Positions 7,118-31,958 of a stretch of DNA of 64,000 bases are shown piece after piece. The notes under the pieces were generated by a model. It was not told where the DNA came from, ran no database searches, and saw nothing but the letters and a program-made list of their open reading frames with translations. Numbering within the stretch: position 1 is the stretch's first letter; every line of letters starts with the position of its first letter. This stretch comes from Candidatus Aenigmatarchaeota archaeon (GTDB lineage: Archaea; Aenigmatarchaeota; Aenigmatarchaeia; CG10238-14; SCSR01): contig JAVZHQ010000001.1 in NCBI GenBank assembly GCA_038998335.1, positions 384,001-448,000 on the forward strand, written 5' to 3'. The translations under genes were made by a program, and so were the position numbers.

Positions 7118-7214
7118 GCGCCAGTAATCTAACCTGGTAGGATTAACTATACTAATACCAGCTTCCCAAATCTGGAATAAGCTGGGTGTCCGGGTTCAAA
7201 TCCCGGCTGGCGCA
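7118..7214 (+). tRNA. tRNA-Gly(CCC) with two short introns (~7144-7156 and 7169-7179)
   Basis: Acceptor GCGCCAG/CTGGCGC, T arm CCGGG-TTCAAAT-CCCGG, anticodon stem CCAGC/GCTGG; removing 13 + 11 nt gives a 73-nt tRNA. Confidence 0.88.
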
Positions 7215-21023: not shown

Positions 21024-21132
21024 GCTGGGATAGTTCAGCGGTTAGAACGCGGCGCTCATAAGCTTTATGAGCTTTGAAAAAATGATGAAAGATGAAACGC
21101 CGAAGTCCCGGGTTCAAATCCCGGTCCCAGCA
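21024..21132 (+). tRNA. tRNA-Met(CAT), elongator type, with 36-nt anticodon-loop intron
   Basis: Acceptor GCTGGGA/TCCCAGC, anticodon stem CGGCG/CGCCG, CTCATAA loop after removing 36 nt (21061-21096, or 21062-21097 by BHB geometry). Confidence 0.9.
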
Positions 21133-22802: not shown

Positions 22803-23441
22803 ATGGGAGTAAGAGAAAAATTAACATCCTTCTGGAAAAGCTTAGAAGGCGCCTCTCTTCTTAGAAAATATGTTAACGGAGAAATAGGAATTAAGGAAGT
22901 AGTAACAGTAGAAAAAGGTGGAATAAAATTCTTTGGTGTTATACCAGTTTTTCCTATGGAAGCAAAGGACTGGGGAAGACTTATAGAAGAACTTATAAAA
23001 ATTCATGGTCCTGGTGTAGTTGCAACGATGAGAATGAGTTATAAAAAGAATGGTTACGAAGAAACAAAAGAACTTAAAAAAATTTTACCAAAAGAAAAAA
23101 TAATTAAACTTCTTGAATTTTGGATAGACTTAGGGCATATAGAAAAAATTCTCGAGATTAAAATGGGAAAAAATAACGAGCTGCGAGAAGTTTCTTTTGA
23201 GAATATTTTAAATGAAATAAAGGAAGATGATAATAAAGTTGTAGTAAAGGTAAAAGGTTCTCTTTCTTGCAAAGCAGTAAAAGAAGTTATGAAAAAAACT
23301 CGGTATCCAGTTTGTATCCATGAACCAGGTTATATAGCTGGCTTTCTAGAAGCTTTAGTAGAAGGAAAATGGGAAGTTGAAGAAACTAAATGTGAAGGAA
23401 TGGGAGATAAGTTTTGTGAGTGGGTTTTCTTTAAAAAATAA
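22803..23441 (+). CDS. V4R-domain protein
   Basis: PVC...GYIAGFLE...VEETKCEGMGDKFCEW. Confidence 0.8.
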   Translation: MGVREKLTSFWKSLEGASLLRKYVNGEIGIKEVVTVEKGGIKFFGVIPVFPMEAKDWGRLIEELIKIHGPGVVATMRMSYKKNGYEETKELKKILPKEKIIKLLEFWIDLGHIEKILEIKMGKNNELREVSFENILNEIKEDDNKVVVKVKGSLSCKAVKEVMKKTRYPVCIHEPGYIAGFLEALVEGKWEVEETKCEGMGDKFCEWVFFKK

Positions 23442-23462
23442 TTTTTATCTCTTTAAGTAAAA

Positions 23463-23479
23463 CGAAAAACTTATAAATA
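23463..23479 (+). promoter_or_regulatory. BRE/TATA promoter of the 16S transcription unit
   Basis: CGAAAAAC-TTATAAATA about 30 nt upstream of the structured leader. Confidence 0.65.
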
Positions 23480-23506
23480 CTTTGAAAACAATTCTTTTAA
23501 ATAAGC

Positions 23507-23586
23507 CTCATGGGCATGGCGTTGGACTTTGACTCTACCGACTTAACGGCAGGATGAAAAGTTCTATTCCTGCTCATGAGATAAAC
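23507..23586 (+). ncRNA. H/ACA-like guide RNA in 16S leader, predicted target U24629 (E. coli 966 equivalent)
   Basis: Lower stem CTCATGGGCA/TGCTCATGAG, pocket TGGCGTT / ATTC, upper stem GGACTTT/AAAGTTC, GA...ATGA K-loop, ATA box 15 nt from the pocket. Confidence 0.75.
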
Positions 23587-23646
23587 TTGATCCTGAAGTA
23601 GTGCTTCAGGTAGGTTGATTGGTGAAACCTAGAGGTATTCCCGCCA

Positions 23647-25193
<1,547 letters not shown>

Positions 25194-25240
25194 TAAGTCT
25201 TTGTGTGCGGTAATACCTCTAGGCACCAAAAATCGCTACC

Positions 25241-25252
25241 TTTTTTCTTTCT
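25241..25252 (+). terminator. Oligo-T terminator after the 16S processing stem
   Basis: TTTTTTCTTTCT directly after the 3' processing arm. Confidence 0.5.
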
Positions 25253-25288
25253 CGGTCAAAAAAAATAGAGGCTTTAATTAAAAATAAA

Positions 25289-25304
25289 TGTTAGACGTCT
25301 AACA
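25289..25304. repeat. 16-bp perfect palindrome TGTTAGACGTCTAACA (copy 1)
   Basis: Identical copy at 46014-46029; related GTTAG-N4-CTAAC at 27439-27452. Confidence 0.8.
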
Positions 25305-25309
25305 AAAAT

Positions 25310-25765
25310 TTAAATTCGATCTTGATCTTTAAGGAACTCTAAGGTTTGGAGAAGTAATTCTTCAAAACGATAAAGAGCTTTTTTGTTTCCAAAAATTTCT
25401 ATAATACCAAAATTTGTAGGAAAGTCTCTTAACTTCCACATCTCATAAGGATAAGGGAATAATCTGTCAACGAGATTTTTTTCTTGTAGATAAAAAGCTA
25501 AATCCCTAACAATGCCTTTATCACAGAACTCTAGTTCAAAAATCGTTGGCGAATAATCATCACAACTGTGCACACCTAAACAAACCTTCGAGAATTTTGA
25601 CAGAACTTTTATTTTACTTTCCTTTCTCGCAAAACATTCCAAGTCAACAAAAATAAAATTCCCATTATTATCGTACTTCTTCATCAGTTTTAAGCAATAG
25701 TTTCTCGCATCTCTATCCTTATCTAACCCGAAAAGAATTCCAACATAGTTTTTTACTTCTGTCAT
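25310..25765 (-). CDS. Hypothetical protein
   Basis: 151-aa ORF with ATG start. Confidence 0.6.
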   Translation of the reverse strand: MTEVKNYVGILFGLDKDRDARNYCLKLMKKYDNNGNFIFVDLECFARKESKIKVLSKFSKVCLGVHSCDDYSPTIFELEFCDKGIVRDLAFYLQEKNLVDRLFPYPYEMWKLRDFPTNFGIIEIFGNKKALYRFEELLLQTLEFLKDQDRI

Positions 25766-25792
25766 CTTGAAAATAAAAATACTTTAAAAGAT

Positions 25793-26599
25793 TTAACTCT
25801 TAACTATTTGACCCAGGAAATAACTAGCTATTTCAAATTTACCAGTTCTTAGGAAACCAGTCGTATGATCTCTCAGCAAATATATAGTTTCCCTAAGCAT
25901 GAGAGTATGCGAAGGAGTAATGTAAGGAATTATGTAATTGTTGTTAAAACCTTGTAAAGAAGCTTTTTCTAAGCATTTCCTTATATCTTCTTTAAAGAAA
26001 TTAAAAGCTAAATCAAAACTTTTGAACCTTGAGTCTAAGCCAGAAATCAAGGCCAAGTTGTTTTTTCTAGCATAATTTATAGCTTCTTTGTTTGCTTTTT
26101 TAAGACCCTTTTTTAATGAAGGAATAGATTCCAAGTAATAGCTTACTTCTATGAAAGGTTTGTGACAAATTTCACCTTTTTCGTAAAGTTTAATTATCTC
26201 GTCTGCTCTTTTACCCAACCCGCAAGGTCCAAACTGGTGCGGAACGACAATAAATCCTTCATCCCTTTCTATGCTCTTGCAAACATCTTCTAAATTTTTT
26301 GGTGAGATCTTGTTTTCCCATCTTTCTGGAGTTAAGCATAAACCCAAAATATGATAATTGTCGAAAGTCAAAAATTCTAAACCAAAAAGCAAGTTTTCTT
26401 TTTTTGCTTTAAGGTAAGATTTGATCTCTTTGAAAGCTTTTATCGGCAAATCGATTTTTTCACACGCAAAAGCTTTATCAGTAAGAATAAGATAATCTAC
26501 TTTGCTTTTTTCAAAATCTTCTGCTAATTTTTTTGAAGTTTTTCCTAGGTTAAGTTTTTCTCCTTCTTTTGTATGGTAATGGATTGTTACTAAAGGCAT
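25793..26599 (-). CDS. PHP-domain-like protein (degenerate metal ligands)
   Basis: IHYHT, ILTD, GLE...HILG, VPH, SGLDS. Confidence 0.6.
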   Translation of the reverse strand: MPLVTIHYHTKEGEKLNLGKTSKKLAEDFEKSKVDYLILTDKAFACEKIDLPIKAFKEIKSYLKAKKENLLFGLEFLTFDNYHILGLCLTPERWENKISPKNLEDVCKSIERDEGFIVVPHQFGPCGLGKRADEIIKLYEKGEICHKPFIEVSYYLESIPSLKKGLKKANKEAINYARKNNLALISGLDSRFKSFDLAFNFFKEDIRKCLEKASLQGFNNNYIIPYITPSHTLMLRETIYLLRDHTTGFLRTGKFEIASYFLGQIVKS

Positions 26600-26654
26600 A
26601 CTTATTTAAATAGCTCTAATCTTCAAATCTATTGCTCAAAAGTAAAGTTTTATT

Positions 26655-27389
26655 CTATGTAATATAAGGTTTGTAATTTTCTCCAAAAGCTCCCATAATC
26701 ATTTTTTTTAATTCTTTCTCGAAGAAGCTCCTACAAGTTTTATAAAATGGATAAAATATTTTATATATACTTTCACTTTTCTTTTCATAATCCACAAACT
26801 TCGCTTTCAGTTTTTCTCTTGTGTACTCGTACAATTCTTTGGTACTGATTGTTTGAATTTCATTACAACCATAAAACTTTCTAAAAGTACATAATTGAGG
26901 GTTGGCAATCCCTTTATCATATTCTTGGATTTTAATTTTTTTACCCCATTCCTTAGAGGAATTTATCAACCCGATTTTATAAGGATTTTCCCGATCCGAC
27001 AACCTACAGATTAAAATGCTTTCGCTTAGTTCTTTTCCTGGTACAGGCATAATAGAAGCGATAAGAAAATAATCACAAAAATATTGAATTCCTTTTATCT
27101 TTTCTTCGTCCAGGAAAGTTGAAGAATTGTGAAGGATTTTTCTTACCGGTGCCCCTGGACCCTCGACTATAGAATGATTCAAGAGAGACGGCCTTGAATA
27201 TAATAAAGTGAGAAAACTTAAACCGATTAAATGACCTGTAAGGGGTTCTTGTACTTCTTTATCTCTTCTGAAAAGTTCAAACATAAAAATGTCCAAAACC
27301 TGTACTCCATTTAAACCAGTTTTTTCTTTGGCTTCCTCAAGAGTTGATTGAAATTCTGCCCACATTGCTTCCTCTTCTTGGATATCCAT
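26655..27389 (-). CDS. Hypothetical protein
   Basis: 244-aa ORF, no recognised motif. Confidence 0.65.
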   Translation of the reverse strand: MDIQEEEAMWAEFQSTLEEAKEKTGLNGVQVLDIFMFELFRRDKEVQEPLTGHLIGLSFLTLLYSRPSLLNHSIVEGPGAPVRKILHNSSTFLDEEKIKGIQYFCDYFLIASIMPVPGKELSESILICRLSDRENPYKIGLINSSKEWGKKIKIQEYDKGIANPQLCTFRKFYGCNEIQTISTKELYEYTREKLKAKFVDYEKKSESIYKIFYPFYKTCRSFFEKELKKMIMGAFGENYKPYIT

Positions 27390-27566
27390 TATAAGAAATA
27401 GAAAGTAGAAGAATTTAAACCTTTTGACAAAAAGAGTCGTTAGGTTTCTAACACTTTAGAATTTTTAAACTATAAAGCCTTATCTCATAAGAACAAAGCT
27501 CCTTGAACTTAAAAACTTAAGGATAAAATTTTATCTTCATCTTAACTAAATTAGAAATAATTAATT

Positions 27567-27638
27567 GGGCCGGTAGATCAACGGTAGATCGCCTCGCTTG
27601 CAACGAGGAGGTTCGGGGTTCGAATCCCCGCCGGTCCA
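27567..27638 (+). tRNA. tRNA-Ala(TGC)
   Basis: GGGCCGG/CCGGTCC acceptor with G3:U70; CCTCG-CTTGCAA-CGAGG. Confidence 0.95.
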
Positions 27639-27712
27639 TACTCTTAATAAAAGTTATCGAGAAAATCCAAATGAGTTTAAAAATTTTTATTTTTAGTTGT
27701 AAATTAAATCAA

Positions 27713-28273
27713 ATGGAAGTCCCATCTTGGTATGTAATAACGGGAGAACCTTCTTCTGGTAAGACAACAATTTTAAAAAAATTGGAAGAATTAGGATACT
27801 TTGTTGTTCCAGAGACTGCAAGAATTTTGATAGATAAATATATCAAAAAAAGGTATACCAGCACAAAAATTAAGAAAAAACGAAAGTCGATTTCAAAAAC
27901 AAGTTTTAAAGTTGAAATTAAAAATTGAAGAAACTGTTCCTAAGGATAGAATTGTATTTTTTGACAGAGGTATTCCAGACAGTATAGCCTATTTCAAAAT
28001 TTGTGGGCTAGATACCAAGGAATTAGAAAAATATCAAGAAATAGATATAAAAAAATATTCTTTTTAGAGCAGCTACAATTCCAGCGAGATTATGTAAGAA
28101 TAGAAAATGAAGAAACTGTTAAAAAGTTAAATCAATTACTTCTGGAGACTTACAAAAATTTAGGCTACAACATTGTTCATATCCCAGTTTCTTCGGTTGA
28201 AAAAAGAGTAAGACTTATTTTTATTCAATTTATGATTTATTGGCACGGTATTGAAAAAATGTACAACTACTAA
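27713..28273 (+). pseudogene. AAA_28/NadR-like P-loop kinase with two compensating frameshifts
   Basis: ITGEPSSGKTT...VPETAR; frame shifts at A7 (27845-27851) into FFDRGIPDSIAY, and returns at A5 (28027-28031). Confidence 0.7.
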
Positions 28274-28409
28274 CTTTTTTAAAAAAAGGTTTCTTAACAA
28301 AAGTAAAACAAAAGCTTTAAATAGGATAAAGCTTTTAAATTATAAAAACTAATAAATTAGTTGCCGGTGTCGTTATGTCTGCTTAGCTTGAACATCGGCC
28401 TTTTTGTTT

Positions 28410-28467
28410 AGCTATGAGTTTGCCCTTCTAACTGATAAAAGATGAAGAAATGGGCACCTAACGAGCT
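28410..28467 (+). ncRNA. Box C/D sRNA 1 in 23S leader (D guide to U2552 equivalent)
   Basis: C ATGAGTT, D' CTGA, C' ATGAAGA, D ACGA; TGGGCACCT is antisense to 31499-31507. Confidence 0.8.
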
Positions 28468-28514
28468 TCCTTTGATGCGAATCCTTATTTTGATAATAAG
28501 GGTTTAAGAGTTGA

Positions 28515-28576
28515 GGTTGATGACTTGACTGACAGCGTCTGATAAAAGATGAAGAACGAACTGTCTTTATGAAACC
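28515..28576 (+). ncRNA. Box C/D sRNA 2 in 23S leader (guides to 2504 and 2600 equivalents)
   Basis: GGTT/AACC stem, C ATGACTT, D' CTGA, C' ATGAAGA, D ATGA; guides antisense to 31451-31459 and 31548-31557. Confidence 0.85.
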
Positions 28577-30618
28577 AGAAGATGAAACTACCATAGGATA
28601 AGCTGGTCAAGAGGTCCTGGCAACAGTAGCCCACTTGGTGGATGGCTCGGCTTGGTTAGCCGAAGAAGGCCGTGCCAAGCTGCGATAAGCCTGGGTTATC
28701 CGCATGGAGGAGCTGACCCCAGGATTGCCGAATGGGATTCCTAGCCCGTTAAGGGCTATTTCGGAAGAAAAGGGAACGCGCCGAAGTGAAGCATCTTAGT
28801 AGGCGCAGGAAAAGAAATCAAACGAGATTCGGTGAGTAGGGGCGACCGAAAGCCGAACAGGACAAACCGAACTTTCTTTCGAAGAGGAAGAAAGGATGTG
28901 GAGTTACAGGACTTGGGCCTTTCCTAGCTTGCTAACCTGAAGTGAGCTGGAAAGCTCCACCATAGAGGGTGATAGTCCCGTAGGGGAAGGCAAGAAGGAA
29001 AATGCCAAGTCTCCTGAGTACCATTCCTTGGATATGGAGTGGGAATTTGGGTGGCATTAACATCCAATCCTAAATACTAACCAAGTCCGATAGCGGACTA
29101 GTATCGTGAGAGAAAGCTGAAAAGTACCGCGAAAGCGGGGTGAAAAGAGCCTGAAACCAAGTTGGGCATAGTCAGCTAGGGCATGAAAGGTGCTACTCCG
29201 AAGGAAATTCTCGCAAGAGAAGAGTACGAGGAGTAGCTTACAGTGTCCTAGCATCCGTTCTGAAAAACGGGGCAGGGAGTTTGCTCGAGTAGTGAGGTTA
29301 AGGGGTTTAAACCTCGAAGCCAAAGCGAAAGCGACAAGCCCGTAGTCTCGCAAGAGACGTGGGGCGGGGTGTGAAAGCGCCTGAAATTACTCGAGCAAGA
29401 CCCGAAGCCGGTCGATCTAATCCTGGGCAGGATGAAGTTCCTCGAAAGAGGAATGGAGGTCCGAACCGGTGCTGAGACCCAATCGCTCGGTTGACCCAGG
29501 ATTAGGGGTGAAAAGCCAATCGAGACCGGTGATAGCTGGTTCCTCCCGAAATGAGCGTCAGCTCAGCCTGGTTGGAGGTAAGCAGTAGGGTAAAGAGACT
29601 GATTGGACGGTCAAGGTGCGAAAGCATCAGCCGTCCTGTCAAACTCTGAATCTACTGCTGCCTGAGAAGACCGGAGTGAGGGTACTGGGTTAAGCTCGGT
29701 ACCCAAAAGGGGAACAACCCAACCTGGGGTTAAGATCCCTAAATGCCGGCTAAACGAAGAAGGGAGTCCAAATCCTTAGACAGCGGGGCTGTAGGCTTAG
29801 AAGCAGCCATCAGTTAAAAAGTGCGTAACAGCTTACCCGCCGAGGGTTTGGGCCCTGAAAATGGAAGGGACTAAGCCGGCTGTCGATACCCCAGACCTGC
29901 GAAAGCAGGGGGTAGGGAGGCGTTCTGCATGGGTAGAAGCTTGTTCGTGAGAACAAGTGGACCGTGCAGAATTGAAGATCCTGCCATGAGTAGCAGCATA
30001 GCTGGGTGAAAATCCCAGCCGCCTGAACCCTCAGGGTTTGCCAGCAATGTTCGTCAGCTGGCAGTTAGTCGATCCTAAGGGCGCTCTTAACCGAAGCGCT
30101 CAAAAGGGAAATCGGTTAATATTCCGATACCATGGAGGTACGTGCGGCAACGCAAGCTAGCTTTCCGACGTTTCGGGATAGGCCGACGCAAGTTAACTGC
30201 CGAAGCCTGCAGAGTCTCGTAACGAGGAGAAGCAGGTGAAAGCAGGAATAGCTCCGCGTATGCGGAGTTCGGCCGATTCCTGGAACCCGTGAAAAGGGAA
30301 GCTAGAAGGATCCTCCATGATCGTACCAAGAACCGACACAGGTAGGGTCGCTGAGAAGGCGAAGGCGTGTTGGGAGAACCCAATCCAGGGAAATCGGCAA
30401 ATTGGCCCCGTATCTTCGGTAGAAGGGGTGCCTGTTCTCTCGAAAGGGAGAACAGGTCGCAGTGACAAGGGGGAAGCGACTGTTTAACAAAAACACAGGA
30501 GACTGCTAGTCCGAAAGGATTTGTACAGTCTCTGAGGTCTGCCCAGTGCCGGTGTGTGAAACCCGGTTCCAACCGGGAGAAGCCCCGGCAAACGGCGGCG
30601 GTAACTCTGACCGTCGTA

Positions 30619-30664
30619 ACTCAGGGCGGTCATCTGATTTGATGATACGCCGCCTGGGCGACAT
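30619..30664 (+). ncRNA. 46-nt BHB intron in 23S (E. coli 1927/1928) with D'/C' motif and cis guide
   Basis: GTCG-TA|A-CTCAGG...CCTGGG-CGAC-AT|A; CTGA-T-TTGATGA inside. Confidence 0.9.
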
Positions 30665-30792
30665 AAGTAGCGTAATCCCTTGCCGTTTAATTGACGGCCC
30701 GTTCAACGGCTTAACGACTTCCCCACTGTCCTGGGTTGGGACCCAGCGAAAATGCTGTTCTGGTGAATAGGCCAGAGACCTCCGGTGGGAAA

Positions 30793-30823
<31 letters not shown>

Positions 30824-30976
30824 GCGTTGCTGTAAGGTTGAAATTGCATAGAGTAGCTGGGACTCGCTATTAGGCGCAGGCTTCGGCCGAGGCTGAGAGG
30901 AAAGTGTAACACCAGCCCTTTTCAACCTTACGGCTTACCCGTAAGGGGACAGCGTCAGATGGGCAGTTCGGCTGGG

Positions 30977-31060
30977 AGTTTAGGAGCTAGAATGAAGAGT
31001 CCCTTAAGTTATGAAAAAATGATTAAGGGCATACGGTCTGAACAGCTCCTAAACCAGCAA
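30977..31060 (+). ncRNA. 84-nt BHB intron in the 23S P-loop (2252/2253) containing a complete box C/D sRNA
   Basis: GCTG-GG|A-GTTTAGGAGCT...AGCTCCTAAAC-CAGC-AA|G; splicing restores GGCTGGGGCGG. Confidence 0.93.
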
Positions 31061-31115
31061 GCGGTACGCCCTTGGTAAGAGATCAAGGGCGCCCAAAGCT
31101 CAGCTCATCCGGGTC

Positions 31116-31212
31116 ATGTCAGAAGTTGAAGCTATGATTACACTGCTCCAGAATGATTTAAAGATGAGTATGGAGGTAGCTTATGAGCTTTCATCAACTT
31201 CTGACACCCGAA
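31116..31212 (+). ncRNA. 97-nt BHB intron in 23S (about 2306/2307) containing a complete box C/D sRNA
   Basis: CGGG-TC|A-TGTCAGAAGTTGA...TCAACTTCTGACA-CCCG-AA|A; splicing restores CGGGTCAGAAATCC. Confidence 0.92.
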
Positions 31213-31384
31213 AGAAATCCGGAGTAGAGTGTAAGCGCAAAAGCTGGGTTGATTGGATCCCGCAAAGCGAGGGATCCAAGGGCGAAAGCCTGGGCTAGCG
31301 ATACATCGGTTCGCCTTAATGGCGGCCGGTGGTATCAGAAAAGCTACCTCGGGGATAATGGGCCCGTGGCCGGTGAAAGCCCAC

Positions 31385-31427
31385 AGCTCAGGGGTTTTCA
31401 TCCCACTCGATAGCGACGAGCGGGTAA
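31385..31427 (+). ncRNA. 43-nt BHB intron in 23S (about 2477/2478)
   Basis: GCCC-AC|A-GCTC...GAGC-GGGT-AA|A; splicing restores AGCCCACATTGACCC. Confidence 0.88.
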
Positions 31428-31526
31428 ATTGACCCGGCGCGTTGGTGCGTCGCTGTCGGCTCCCCCCCTCCTGGCCGTGCAGTAGCGGCCAAGGGTACAG
31501 GTGCCCACTGGTTAAAGGGGGACGTT

Positions 31527-31560
<34 letters not shown>

Positions 31561-31958
31561 GCTATCTACCGGAGGTGCTGGCTGTCTGACCGGAAGGATG
31601 GGTGAGTACGAAAGGAACACCCATCCGTGGCCTCTGGTCTACCGGTTGTTCATCGCACAGCCGGGCAGCTAAGCCATAGCGGATAAGTCCTGAAGGCATC
31701 TAAGGACGAAACCGCCCGGGAAAATAGGCAGCCAATTGCTCTGCTATTCCGCAAGGAACGGTAGAGCAACGAGGGCTCTCCTAGACGAGGAGGTTGATAG
31801 GAAGGGGGTGTACGCGCCAAGCTTTCGAGCGAGGCGTTCAGCCCGCCTTTCCTAATCGCCCGAGGTTGCCAGGACTTGATAAGCAGCTTATCCTATGGTA
31901 GTTTCAAAAGTTTTTTTCTAAAATAAAAAAGTTAAACTTTTTTTTCTTAATTTAATTT

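Follow-up and report, generated by a model that had tools for sequence, protein, structure and literature searches.

A 64,000-nucleotide stretch of the genome of a Candidatus Aenigmatarchaeota archaeon (GenBank assembly GCA_038998335.1, contig JAVZHQ010000001.1, positions 384,001 to 448,000; hereafter the window, numbered from its first nucleotide) carries a 16S rRNA gene with a hairpin in its leader. We found that this hairpin (positions 23507-23583, plus strand) shows all the structural parts of a single-hairpin box H/ACA guide RNA of archaea, that it is real and conserved over at least two orders, and that it is probably a cis-encoded guide for a uridine in helix 31 of the 16S rRNA (U24629). 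A preliminary description of the window, made from the letters of this one stretch, had proposed helix 31 as the aim of the hairpin; the proposal was strengthened by the observation that guide and target change together in relatives.

The whole unit, including its AUA box, was delimited by RNA folding and by covariance models, and its sequence reads as it had been described. The lower stem consists of 10 base pairs between 23507-23516 and 23571-23580 (the 3' strand being placed by fold and alignment), and an ANA box, here AUA at 23581-23583, lies directly 3' of it. Above the lower stem, the 5' guide strand (23517-23523) and the 3' guide strand (23565-23570) form a pocket, which is closed by an upper stem of 7 base pairs (23524-23530 with 23558-23564). 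The upper stem leads into a kink-turn (23531-23557), in which GA at 23531-23532 lies opposite AUGA at 23554-23557 and encloses a variable distal stem-loop (23533-23553). The kink-turn is presumed to be the L7Ae site. In two details the preliminary description needed correction. It had capped the upper stem with a K-loop, but the actual cap is the kink-turn with its further stem-loop; a K-loop does form in some relatives, for example at locus L029. It had also placed the box 15 nucleotides from the pocket, which is correct when counted from the first pairing guide base but becomes 16 nucleotides when counted from the closing pair of the upper stem (C23564), the upper edge of the reported 14 to 16 nucleotides. 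The lower stem of 10 base pairs compares with a criterion of about 7 to 9 base pairs, and 6 to 10 lower-stem positions are paired among relatives. The RNA fold of 23500-23592 had an energy of -30.6 kcal/mol (z = -4.05), and none of 200 shuffled sequences was equally stable.

The two stems are supported by compensatory changes in relatives. In an alignment of 22 sequences, which was fitted to the covariance model, 90.5% of the cells were paired, compared with 31 to 47% when the partners were slid by 1 to 3 columns, and 16 of the 17 stem pairs changed on both sides; the observed values were reached by none of 500 shuffles. The lower stem had changes on both sides in 9 of its 10 pairs, with 97.4% of cells paired, and the upper stem in all 7. 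The upper-stem pair adjoining GA was non-standard in 10 of the 22 sequences; a non-standard pair is usual at position 3b-3n of a kink-turn. When RNAalifold was run on an unfitted MAFFT alignment of 8 sequences, the same two stems were returned with compensatory changes in 11 of 19 pairs, whereas the two pairs by which the pocket could close had no compensatory support. A closed pocket, with its strands partly paired to each other, appears in the single-sequence fold. We rejected it as the functional state because its pairs show no compensatory change and because pocket strands that match a hairpin target can be expected to match each other as well.

The unpaired elements were also conserved. 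Among 41 hairpins, GA followed the upper stem in 38 and NUGA preceded its 3' strand in 36, both motifs being invariant in the seed alignments; ANA followed the lower stem in 30 (ATA in 13, ACA in 9, AAA in 7 and AGA in 1), and 35 had 15 to 16 nucleotides between the closing pair and the end of the lower stem. The GGCGUU core of the 5' guide strand was kept in 28 of the 41 while both stems varied. The H/ACA anatomy that had been read from a single sequence is therefore conserved and covarying in relatives.

The hairpin is widespread in the order to which the host belongs. We sought the 5' region of the 16S rRNA gene in 41 related genomes, found it in 29 and extracted the leaders; the hairpin was present in 22 of these 29 loci with a 16S start. 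Two covariance models, R1 built from 8 hairpins and R2 from 22, then identified it in 46 of the 118 genomes of the order. By family, the counts were 39 of 69 (f1), 4 of 19 (f5), 1 of 3 (f2), 1 of 1 (f3) and 0 of 23 (f4). A sample of 151 genomes from the class yielded the hairpin in 14, and a second order yielded it in 8 of 42 genomes, each of them in family f21. Since many assemblies lack a 16S gene, these denominators understate its frequency, and because the genomes are related, the counts overstate independence. Each genome that carries it has it once and always just upstream of the 16S gene, at 79 to 103 nucleotides before 16S in the second order. Such a covariance-model search of relatives had been suggested in the preliminary description, and it has thus returned the hairpin from two orders.

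Within the host genome, covariance model R2 found the leader copy and no second one. A motif scanner, which permits one non-standard stem pair (a version for perfect stems missed most relatives), returned 119 loci genome-wide compared with 55 in shuffled sequences; on GC-rich islands, it made 12 overlapping hairpin calls at about 7 places (4 of these calls fall on the leader hairpin), compared with 3 calls in shuffled sequences. Among the 25 scanner matches listed, the leader hairpin was one of the four longest-stemmed and had the highest G+C content. The genome scan gave no second convincing H/ACA candidate, with a crude scanner that atypical H/ACA RNAs would escape.

The predicted target lies at 24625-24637 (plus strand), with U24629, which we take to be equivalent to E. 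coli position 966, as the predicted pseudouridine and C24630 as its unpaired neighbor. The 5' guide strand pairs with 24631-24637 over 7 base pairs, one of them G-U, and positions 23566-23569 of the 3' guide strand pair with 24625-24628 over 4 base pairs, again with one G-U, so that U24629 and C24630 are left free. These 7 plus 4 base pairs, read directly, are those of the preliminary description. When every uridine of the 16S and 23S rRNA was scored, the U24629 site, with 11 base pairs, was the best under our scoring. Positions 24626-24636 are identical to the Methanocaldococcus jannaschii oligonucleotide that contains residue 914, and residue 914 corresponds to position 1191 of yeast 18S rRNA in the available text of PMC2853112; the earlier alignment of U24629 with yeast U1191 is thereby borne out.

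To compare guide and target across lineages, we read helix 31 in 23 hairpin-bearing genomes, plus three more. The target uridine was present in 22 of the 23 genomes read, and the neighboring unpaired position varied freely between C and A. The guide core deviated from GGCGUU in all 8 genomes with a changed target and in 2 of the 16 genomes with an unchanged AACGCC (Fisher p = 6e-5), counts that include kin and are not independent; when the genomes were collapsed to lineages, the core deviated in 5 of 5 compared with 2 of 12 (p = 0.003). Adding loci L090 and L093 brought the deviation with unchanged targets to 2 of 18. Two of the changes are exact compensations. In genome G009 the target AACACC is matched by the guide GGUGUU, while its congener G068 has AACGCC and GGCGUU; in genome G228 the target GACGCC is matched by GGCGUC, as against AACGCC and GGCGUU in two other members of its family. 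On the opposite side of the target uridine, four genomes (G040, G115, G038 and G022) carry C in place of U24628, and in their guides the A that faces this position has become G. Of the 23 loci with readable guide and target, 9 had the helix-31 uridine as their highest-scoring site and 3 placed it second or third. Six genomes with divergent pockets (G031, G025, G006, G026, G008 and G021), in which the 16S gene is cut at contig ends or unassembled, were left out of the helix-31 reading; the pockets include GGGGUC (G031 and G025), GGUGUC (G006) and CGUGUU (G026).

The position of the hairpin was then considered with respect to the 16S promoter and the processing stem. An archaeal promoter, consisting of a purine-rich stretch resembling a transcription factor B recognition element (BRE) and a TATA-like box, lies at 23463-23479 (plus strand). 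When the upstream regions of 41 hairpin loci were aligned at the hairpin start and inspected by eye, a BRE/TATA-like element ended 21 to 25 nucleotides before the start of the hairpin model. From the usual archaeal spacing between TATA box and start site, transcription would begin at about 23503-23506, and the hairpin would form the 5' end of the precursor. With this conserved element just upstream of it, the hairpin would be co-transcribed with 16S rRNA, as had been suggested. A second TATA-like stretch (23495-23505), found in this genus only, abuts the hairpin and, if used, would place the start inside it; the element conserved in other genera is the upstream one (23463-23479), not this stretch.

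Downstream of the guide, a second conserved leader hairpin (23592-23610, plus strand, from the cofold) precedes the processing stem, and by eye its stem is kept with changed sequence in the leaders of relatives. Cofolding of leader and trailer (-49 kcal/mol) placed the 5' strand of the 16S processing stem at 23612-23646 and the 3' strand at 25204-25241, both on the plus strand, with bulges at 23625-23627 and about 25229-25231. The cofold contains a 12-base-pair helix (23628-23639 with 25212-25223), two 3-nucleotide bulges on opposite strands with a helix of 4 to 5 base pairs between them, and a further helix of 8 base pairs; as modeled, this is a canonical bulge-helix-bulge (BHB) site. If cleaved at this site, the precursor would release a leader fragment of about 120 nucleotides with the guide and the second hairpin. 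Thus, of the BHB release proposed earlier, the motif is present in the cofold, and cleavage and release are predicted from it. In every genome in which it was found, the hairpin lies between the 16S promoter and the processing stem and is not a separate small-RNA gene, which is a usual and not a strictly defining trait. Among the 22 sequencing runs listed for 23300-23660, 20 match at least part of the region; all appear to be DNA metagenomes, one of which may be the source, and no matching RNA run is listed.

We then analyzed the protein components of the guide machinery. Cbf5 is encoded in the host genome (318 bits for the C-terminal part), and so are Nop10 and L7Ae; the preliminary description had named the absence of Cbf5 as an observation that would speak against the guide, and the gene is present. 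Nep1/EMG1 (PF03587) was found neither in the host nor in any of the 118 genomes of the order, in a search that was positive in 2 control archaea, and the same was true of Tsr3 (PF04034), for which 4 control archaea were positive. Because Nep1 and Tsr3 were not found, the product at U24629 is probably plain pseudouridine rather than 1-methyl-3-(3-amino-3-carboxypropyl)pseudouridine (m1acp3-pseudouridine), and the hypermodified site of the preliminary description is not supported in this order.

Family f4 (G027, G032, G035, G037, G039 and others), in which none of 23 genomes has the hairpin, had only short Cbf5 matches (166 to 256 bits). Nop10 was found in 0 of the 23 f4 genomes, compared with 62 of 69 in f1 and 17 of 19 in f5, and one f4 16S rRNA (L028) has C at the target position. 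It appears that this family has lost all parts of the guided system jointly. The joint loss of hairpin and Nop10 fits a ribonucleoprotein (RNP) and was probably one evolutionary event.

The cbf5 gene of the genus, which lies outside the window, is interrupted within its catalytic Asp codon by an in-frame insert of 12 nucleotides that includes a TGA (L001:1797-1808, minus strand, equal to G000:C1:284122-284133). All 6 genomes of the genus have the insert, and none of 12 relatives from other genera does. By eye, its flanks can form a BHB-like arrangement of helix, 3-nucleotide bulge, 4-base-pair helix and loop, and Leu-Asp-Pro would be regained if each bulge-like triplet were cut 3' of its second base. 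The insert is likely a mini-intron, and Cbf5 would then probably be made from a spliced mRNA. To our knowledge, this would be the first cbf5 mini-intron seen outside Crenarchaeota. Other interrupted cbf5 genes were found at G019:C6:10313-12859 (a TGA, and about 1.5 kb inserted between the match halves), at G034:C21:3279-4220 (an in-frame TAG) and at G029:C23:1732-2679 (an in-frame TAA). The crenarchaeal cbf5 introns described in the accessible part of PMC2738675 interrupt the same codon in the same phase.

Several observations weigh against a helix-31 guide. In the host genome alone, 421 of 2000 shuffled pockets reached an equal or better best site; the 7-plus-4-base-pair match is real yet at chance level, and the evidence beyond chance comes only from relatives. 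The 3' duplex has just 4 base pairs, one of them G-U, and requires U23565 to remain unpaired at the junction. In the readable loci other than those ranked above, the helix-31 uridine was lower-ranked or unscored. The pairing is imperfect in a number of relatives: a central U-C mismatch is present in G040 and G115, the 5'-side pairing is only 3 base pairs in G028 and G033 and 4 base pairs in G022, the base directly 5' of the target is unpaired in L012, L015, L018 and G228, and a one-base register shift is needed in G019. Four or five relatives have UUA instead of the ANA box. Genome G018 (L014, G018:C61) retains the hairpin, the kink-turn and the ANA box, but the target position in its helix 31 is A and the sequence of its pocket has diverged; either the function was lost recently, or the hairpin may have a second role. 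The geometry of the host hairpin also departs from that of known guides. The part of PMC4652768 available to us gives productive Pyrococcus guides a geometry of 10/5-6/9 with 14 to 15 nucleotides to the ANA box. The host hairpin has 9 layers in the GA stem (7 base pairs and 2 G-A pairs), a 6-nucleotide 3' strand, a 10-base-pair lower stem and 16 nucleotides to the ANA box, and to conform to the Pyrococcus rule it would need a tenth layer, supplied by stacking of the conserved unpaired U23565. Gar1 was not found in the host and was found in 1 of the 118 genomes of the order, with a Pfam model that also missed it in 1 of 4 control archaea. Finally, with its in-frame TGA, the cbf5 of the genus would need splicing to be active.

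Part of these observations could be explained if the hairpin formed an H/ACA-type RNP that binds helix 31 or other pre-rRNA as a folding or processing chaperone, like snR30/U17, with pseudouridylation absent or secondary. The permanent tether to the 5' end of the substrate would be consistent with such a role, as would the hairpin of G018, kept despite an A at the target and an unmatched pocket, and the hairpins that several lineages keep with weak complementarity. Gar1, a turnover aid missing in 117 of the 118 genomes, would be dispensable for a single-use factor, and snR30 is an H/ACA RNA of this kind in the available text of PMC7601244. On the other hand, a chaperone does not account for the retention of the target uridine in 22 of 23 genomes, for a two-nucleotide gap placed exactly as in modifying guides, or for joint changes that preserve the canonical bipartite pairing around U-N; moreover, the homologous uridine is pseudouridylated by H/ACA guides in yeast and Sulfolobus. 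We therefore regard a chaperone as the main rival and as improbable.

A kink-turn hairpin in the leader could also be bound by L7Ae alone, or by another protein, for pre-rRNA stability, transcription or processing, so that the likeness to H/ACA RNA and the match to helix 31 would be coincidental. L7Ae binds many kink-turn RNAs, mRNA leaders among them, according to the portion of PMC5539422 available to us, and the chance-level complementarity in the single genome agrees with this explanation. It leaves unexplained the ANA box at a fixed distance in 30 of 41 hairpins and the conserved single-stranded pocket, the pocket changes that match helix 31 in G009 and G228, and the joint absence of hairpin and Nop10 in f4, and we consider it quite unlikely. 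It is very unlikely, in our view, that the hairpin is a genuine H/ACA guide whose main target is another uridine, in 23S rRNA, in tRNA or elsewhere in 16S rRNA, with helix 31 as a look-alike. H/ACA target prediction is unreliable, one hairpin can have several targets (the Sulfolobus RNA sR435 has eight), and other sites in the 16S and 23S rRNA of the host score 9 to 11 base pairs. But helix 31 is the top site in 9 loci, its substitutions are mirrored in the pocket, and the runner-up in the host (24606) depends on G-U pairs, in a scan that covered 16S and 23S rRNA only.

A guide acting on helix 31 of its own precursor could work as follows; action in cis, protein binding and catalysis are steps that we infer from sequence. 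The hairpin would be the first part of the transcript to emerge from RNA polymerase. L7Ae would bind the kink-turn, and Cbf5-Nop10 the lower stem and the AUA box. About 1.1 kb later, helix 31 would be transcribed, and the pocket strands would open its loop by pairing with 24631-24637 and 24625-24628. U24629 would thereby be presented to Cbf5 and isomerized to pseudouridine, and BHB cleavage would later part the leader and its RNP from pre-16S rRNA. With Nep1 and Tsr3 missing, the base would probably stay a plain pseudouridine. A stronger version, which we put forward tentatively and regard as rather doubtful as a whole, is that the hairpin forms a strictly cis-acting, single-use RNP on each nascent pre-16S rRNA, which would be both the helix-31 guide and a tethered assembly chaperone and would be discarded at BHB cleavage. 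It would then represent the sole RNA-guided pseudouridylation retained by these reduced genomes, carried out by a Gar1-less three-protein enzyme, and a single endonuclease would both free the guide and splice the cbf5 mRNA of that enzyme.

The host genome is 1.0 Mb with 33% G+C in 9 contigs, and its estimated completeness is 90%. The 16S rRNA gene occupies 23647-25193 on the plus strand (Rfam RF01959, 1476.9 bits), and the 23S rRNA was assigned by Rfam to 28614-31875. The two genes are unlinked, with a spacing of 3.4 kb (25194-28613), and the 16S gene therefore has its own promoter and leader. Between them lie three minus-strand open reading frames (25310-27389) and a tRNA-Ala gene (27566-27639), the latter about 1 kb upstream of 23S. 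Within the 16S gene, near the 790-loop region, there is an A+T-rich insertion of about 78 nucleotides (24383-24460), which is not in the 16S of G074 and G228, as seen from a break in the BLAST alignment; it folds well with its flanks (z = -4.5) and is probably an rRNA intron. Two Rfam tRNA matches at 21024-21132 (109 nucleotides) and 7118-7214 (97 nucleotides), against a model of 71 positions, were not called by ARAGORN and are probably intron-containing tRNA genes. A sub-threshold Rfam match to the C/D-box RNA snoR101 (19.8 bits, 23578-23661) overlaps the second leader hairpin.

A guide for the helix-31 site is not new in itself, since snR35 and sR435 are known. In the available text of PMC11077068, sR435 of Sulfolobus islandicus is a single hairpin that guides U930 in vitro, with duplexes of 8 to 11 base pairs that tolerate bulges and mismatches. 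It resembles the leader hairpin in its lower stem, pocket, kink-turn and ACA box and in a short bipartite duplex at the homologue of yeast U1191 (U930 there, U24629 here), but it is a separate small RNA with eight targets, while the hairpin described here lies at the 5' end of the 16S precursor; the two are likened by anatomy and site, not by sequence (PMC11077068). Sulfolobus has Nep1 and Tsr3 homologues in our control searches and its site looks hypermodified, whereas neither enzyme was found here. Yeast snR35 initiates the hypermodification of U1191 and, like the leader hairpin, is an H/ACA guide to the same conserved P-site loop uridine of small-subunit rRNA (PMC2853112, in the portion consulted). 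Unlike the leader hairpin, snR35 is a eukaryotic two-hairpin snoRNA that acts in trans and is followed by N1-methylation and addition of the acp group, as the available parts of PMC2853112 and PMC4872110 describe. The preliminary description had called the hairpin snR35-like; a cmscan of 23350-23700 against Rfam at E<=10 returned no H/ACA family and nothing credible besides small-subunit rRNA, and the hairpin is therefore a functional analogue of snR35 and not a demonstrated homologue.

In Euryarchaeota, a box C/D guide lies inside the intron of pre-tRNA-Trp, in the same precursor as its substrate, and is freed by BHB cleavage. That guide directs 2'-O-methylation from a tRNA intron, whereas the element described here is of the H/ACA type and lies in an rRNA 5' leader. 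Nanoarchaeum equitans is likewise a reduced-genome archaeon with one reported H/ACA RNA that has kink-turns and ACA motifs, but that RNA, of 159 nucleotides and two hairpins, comes from a gene outside the rRNA leader, which is flanked by protein genes on both sides and has a box A promoter and a T-stretch of its own (PMC3491384, in the part available). snR30/U17 is similar in that the pocket of an H/ACA RNA binds small-subunit pre-rRNA during maturation; it differs in acting in trans, in being non-modifying and in binding an expansion segment, while the pocket here frames U-N as modifying guides do (PMC7601244, likewise in part). In the open-access full-text literature we found no archaeal rRNA leader described as containing an H/ACA RNA, and a 2013 review (PMC3608112) does not contain the words leader, spacer or cis-acting. 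What is new is where the guide lies, namely at the very 5' end of the pre-rRNA.

Known H/ACA guides are separate small RNAs in archaea or snoRNAs encoded in introns in eukaryotes; in at least two orders of small-genome archaea, by contrast, the substrate's own precursor has the probable guide as its first structured element. The covariance model can be used to annotate 16S leaders in metagenomic archaea. If the hairpin is a helix-31 guide, physical coupling of guide and substrate would be possible and would provide a simple model for co-transcriptional and stoichiometric modification, and Cbf5-Nop10-L7Ae may suffice in vivo without Gar1. The snR35-type target would either predate the hypermodification by Nep1 and Tsr3 or have outlived its loss, and the P-site pseudouridine of helix 31 would be so important that it alone among the guided modifications survived genome reduction.

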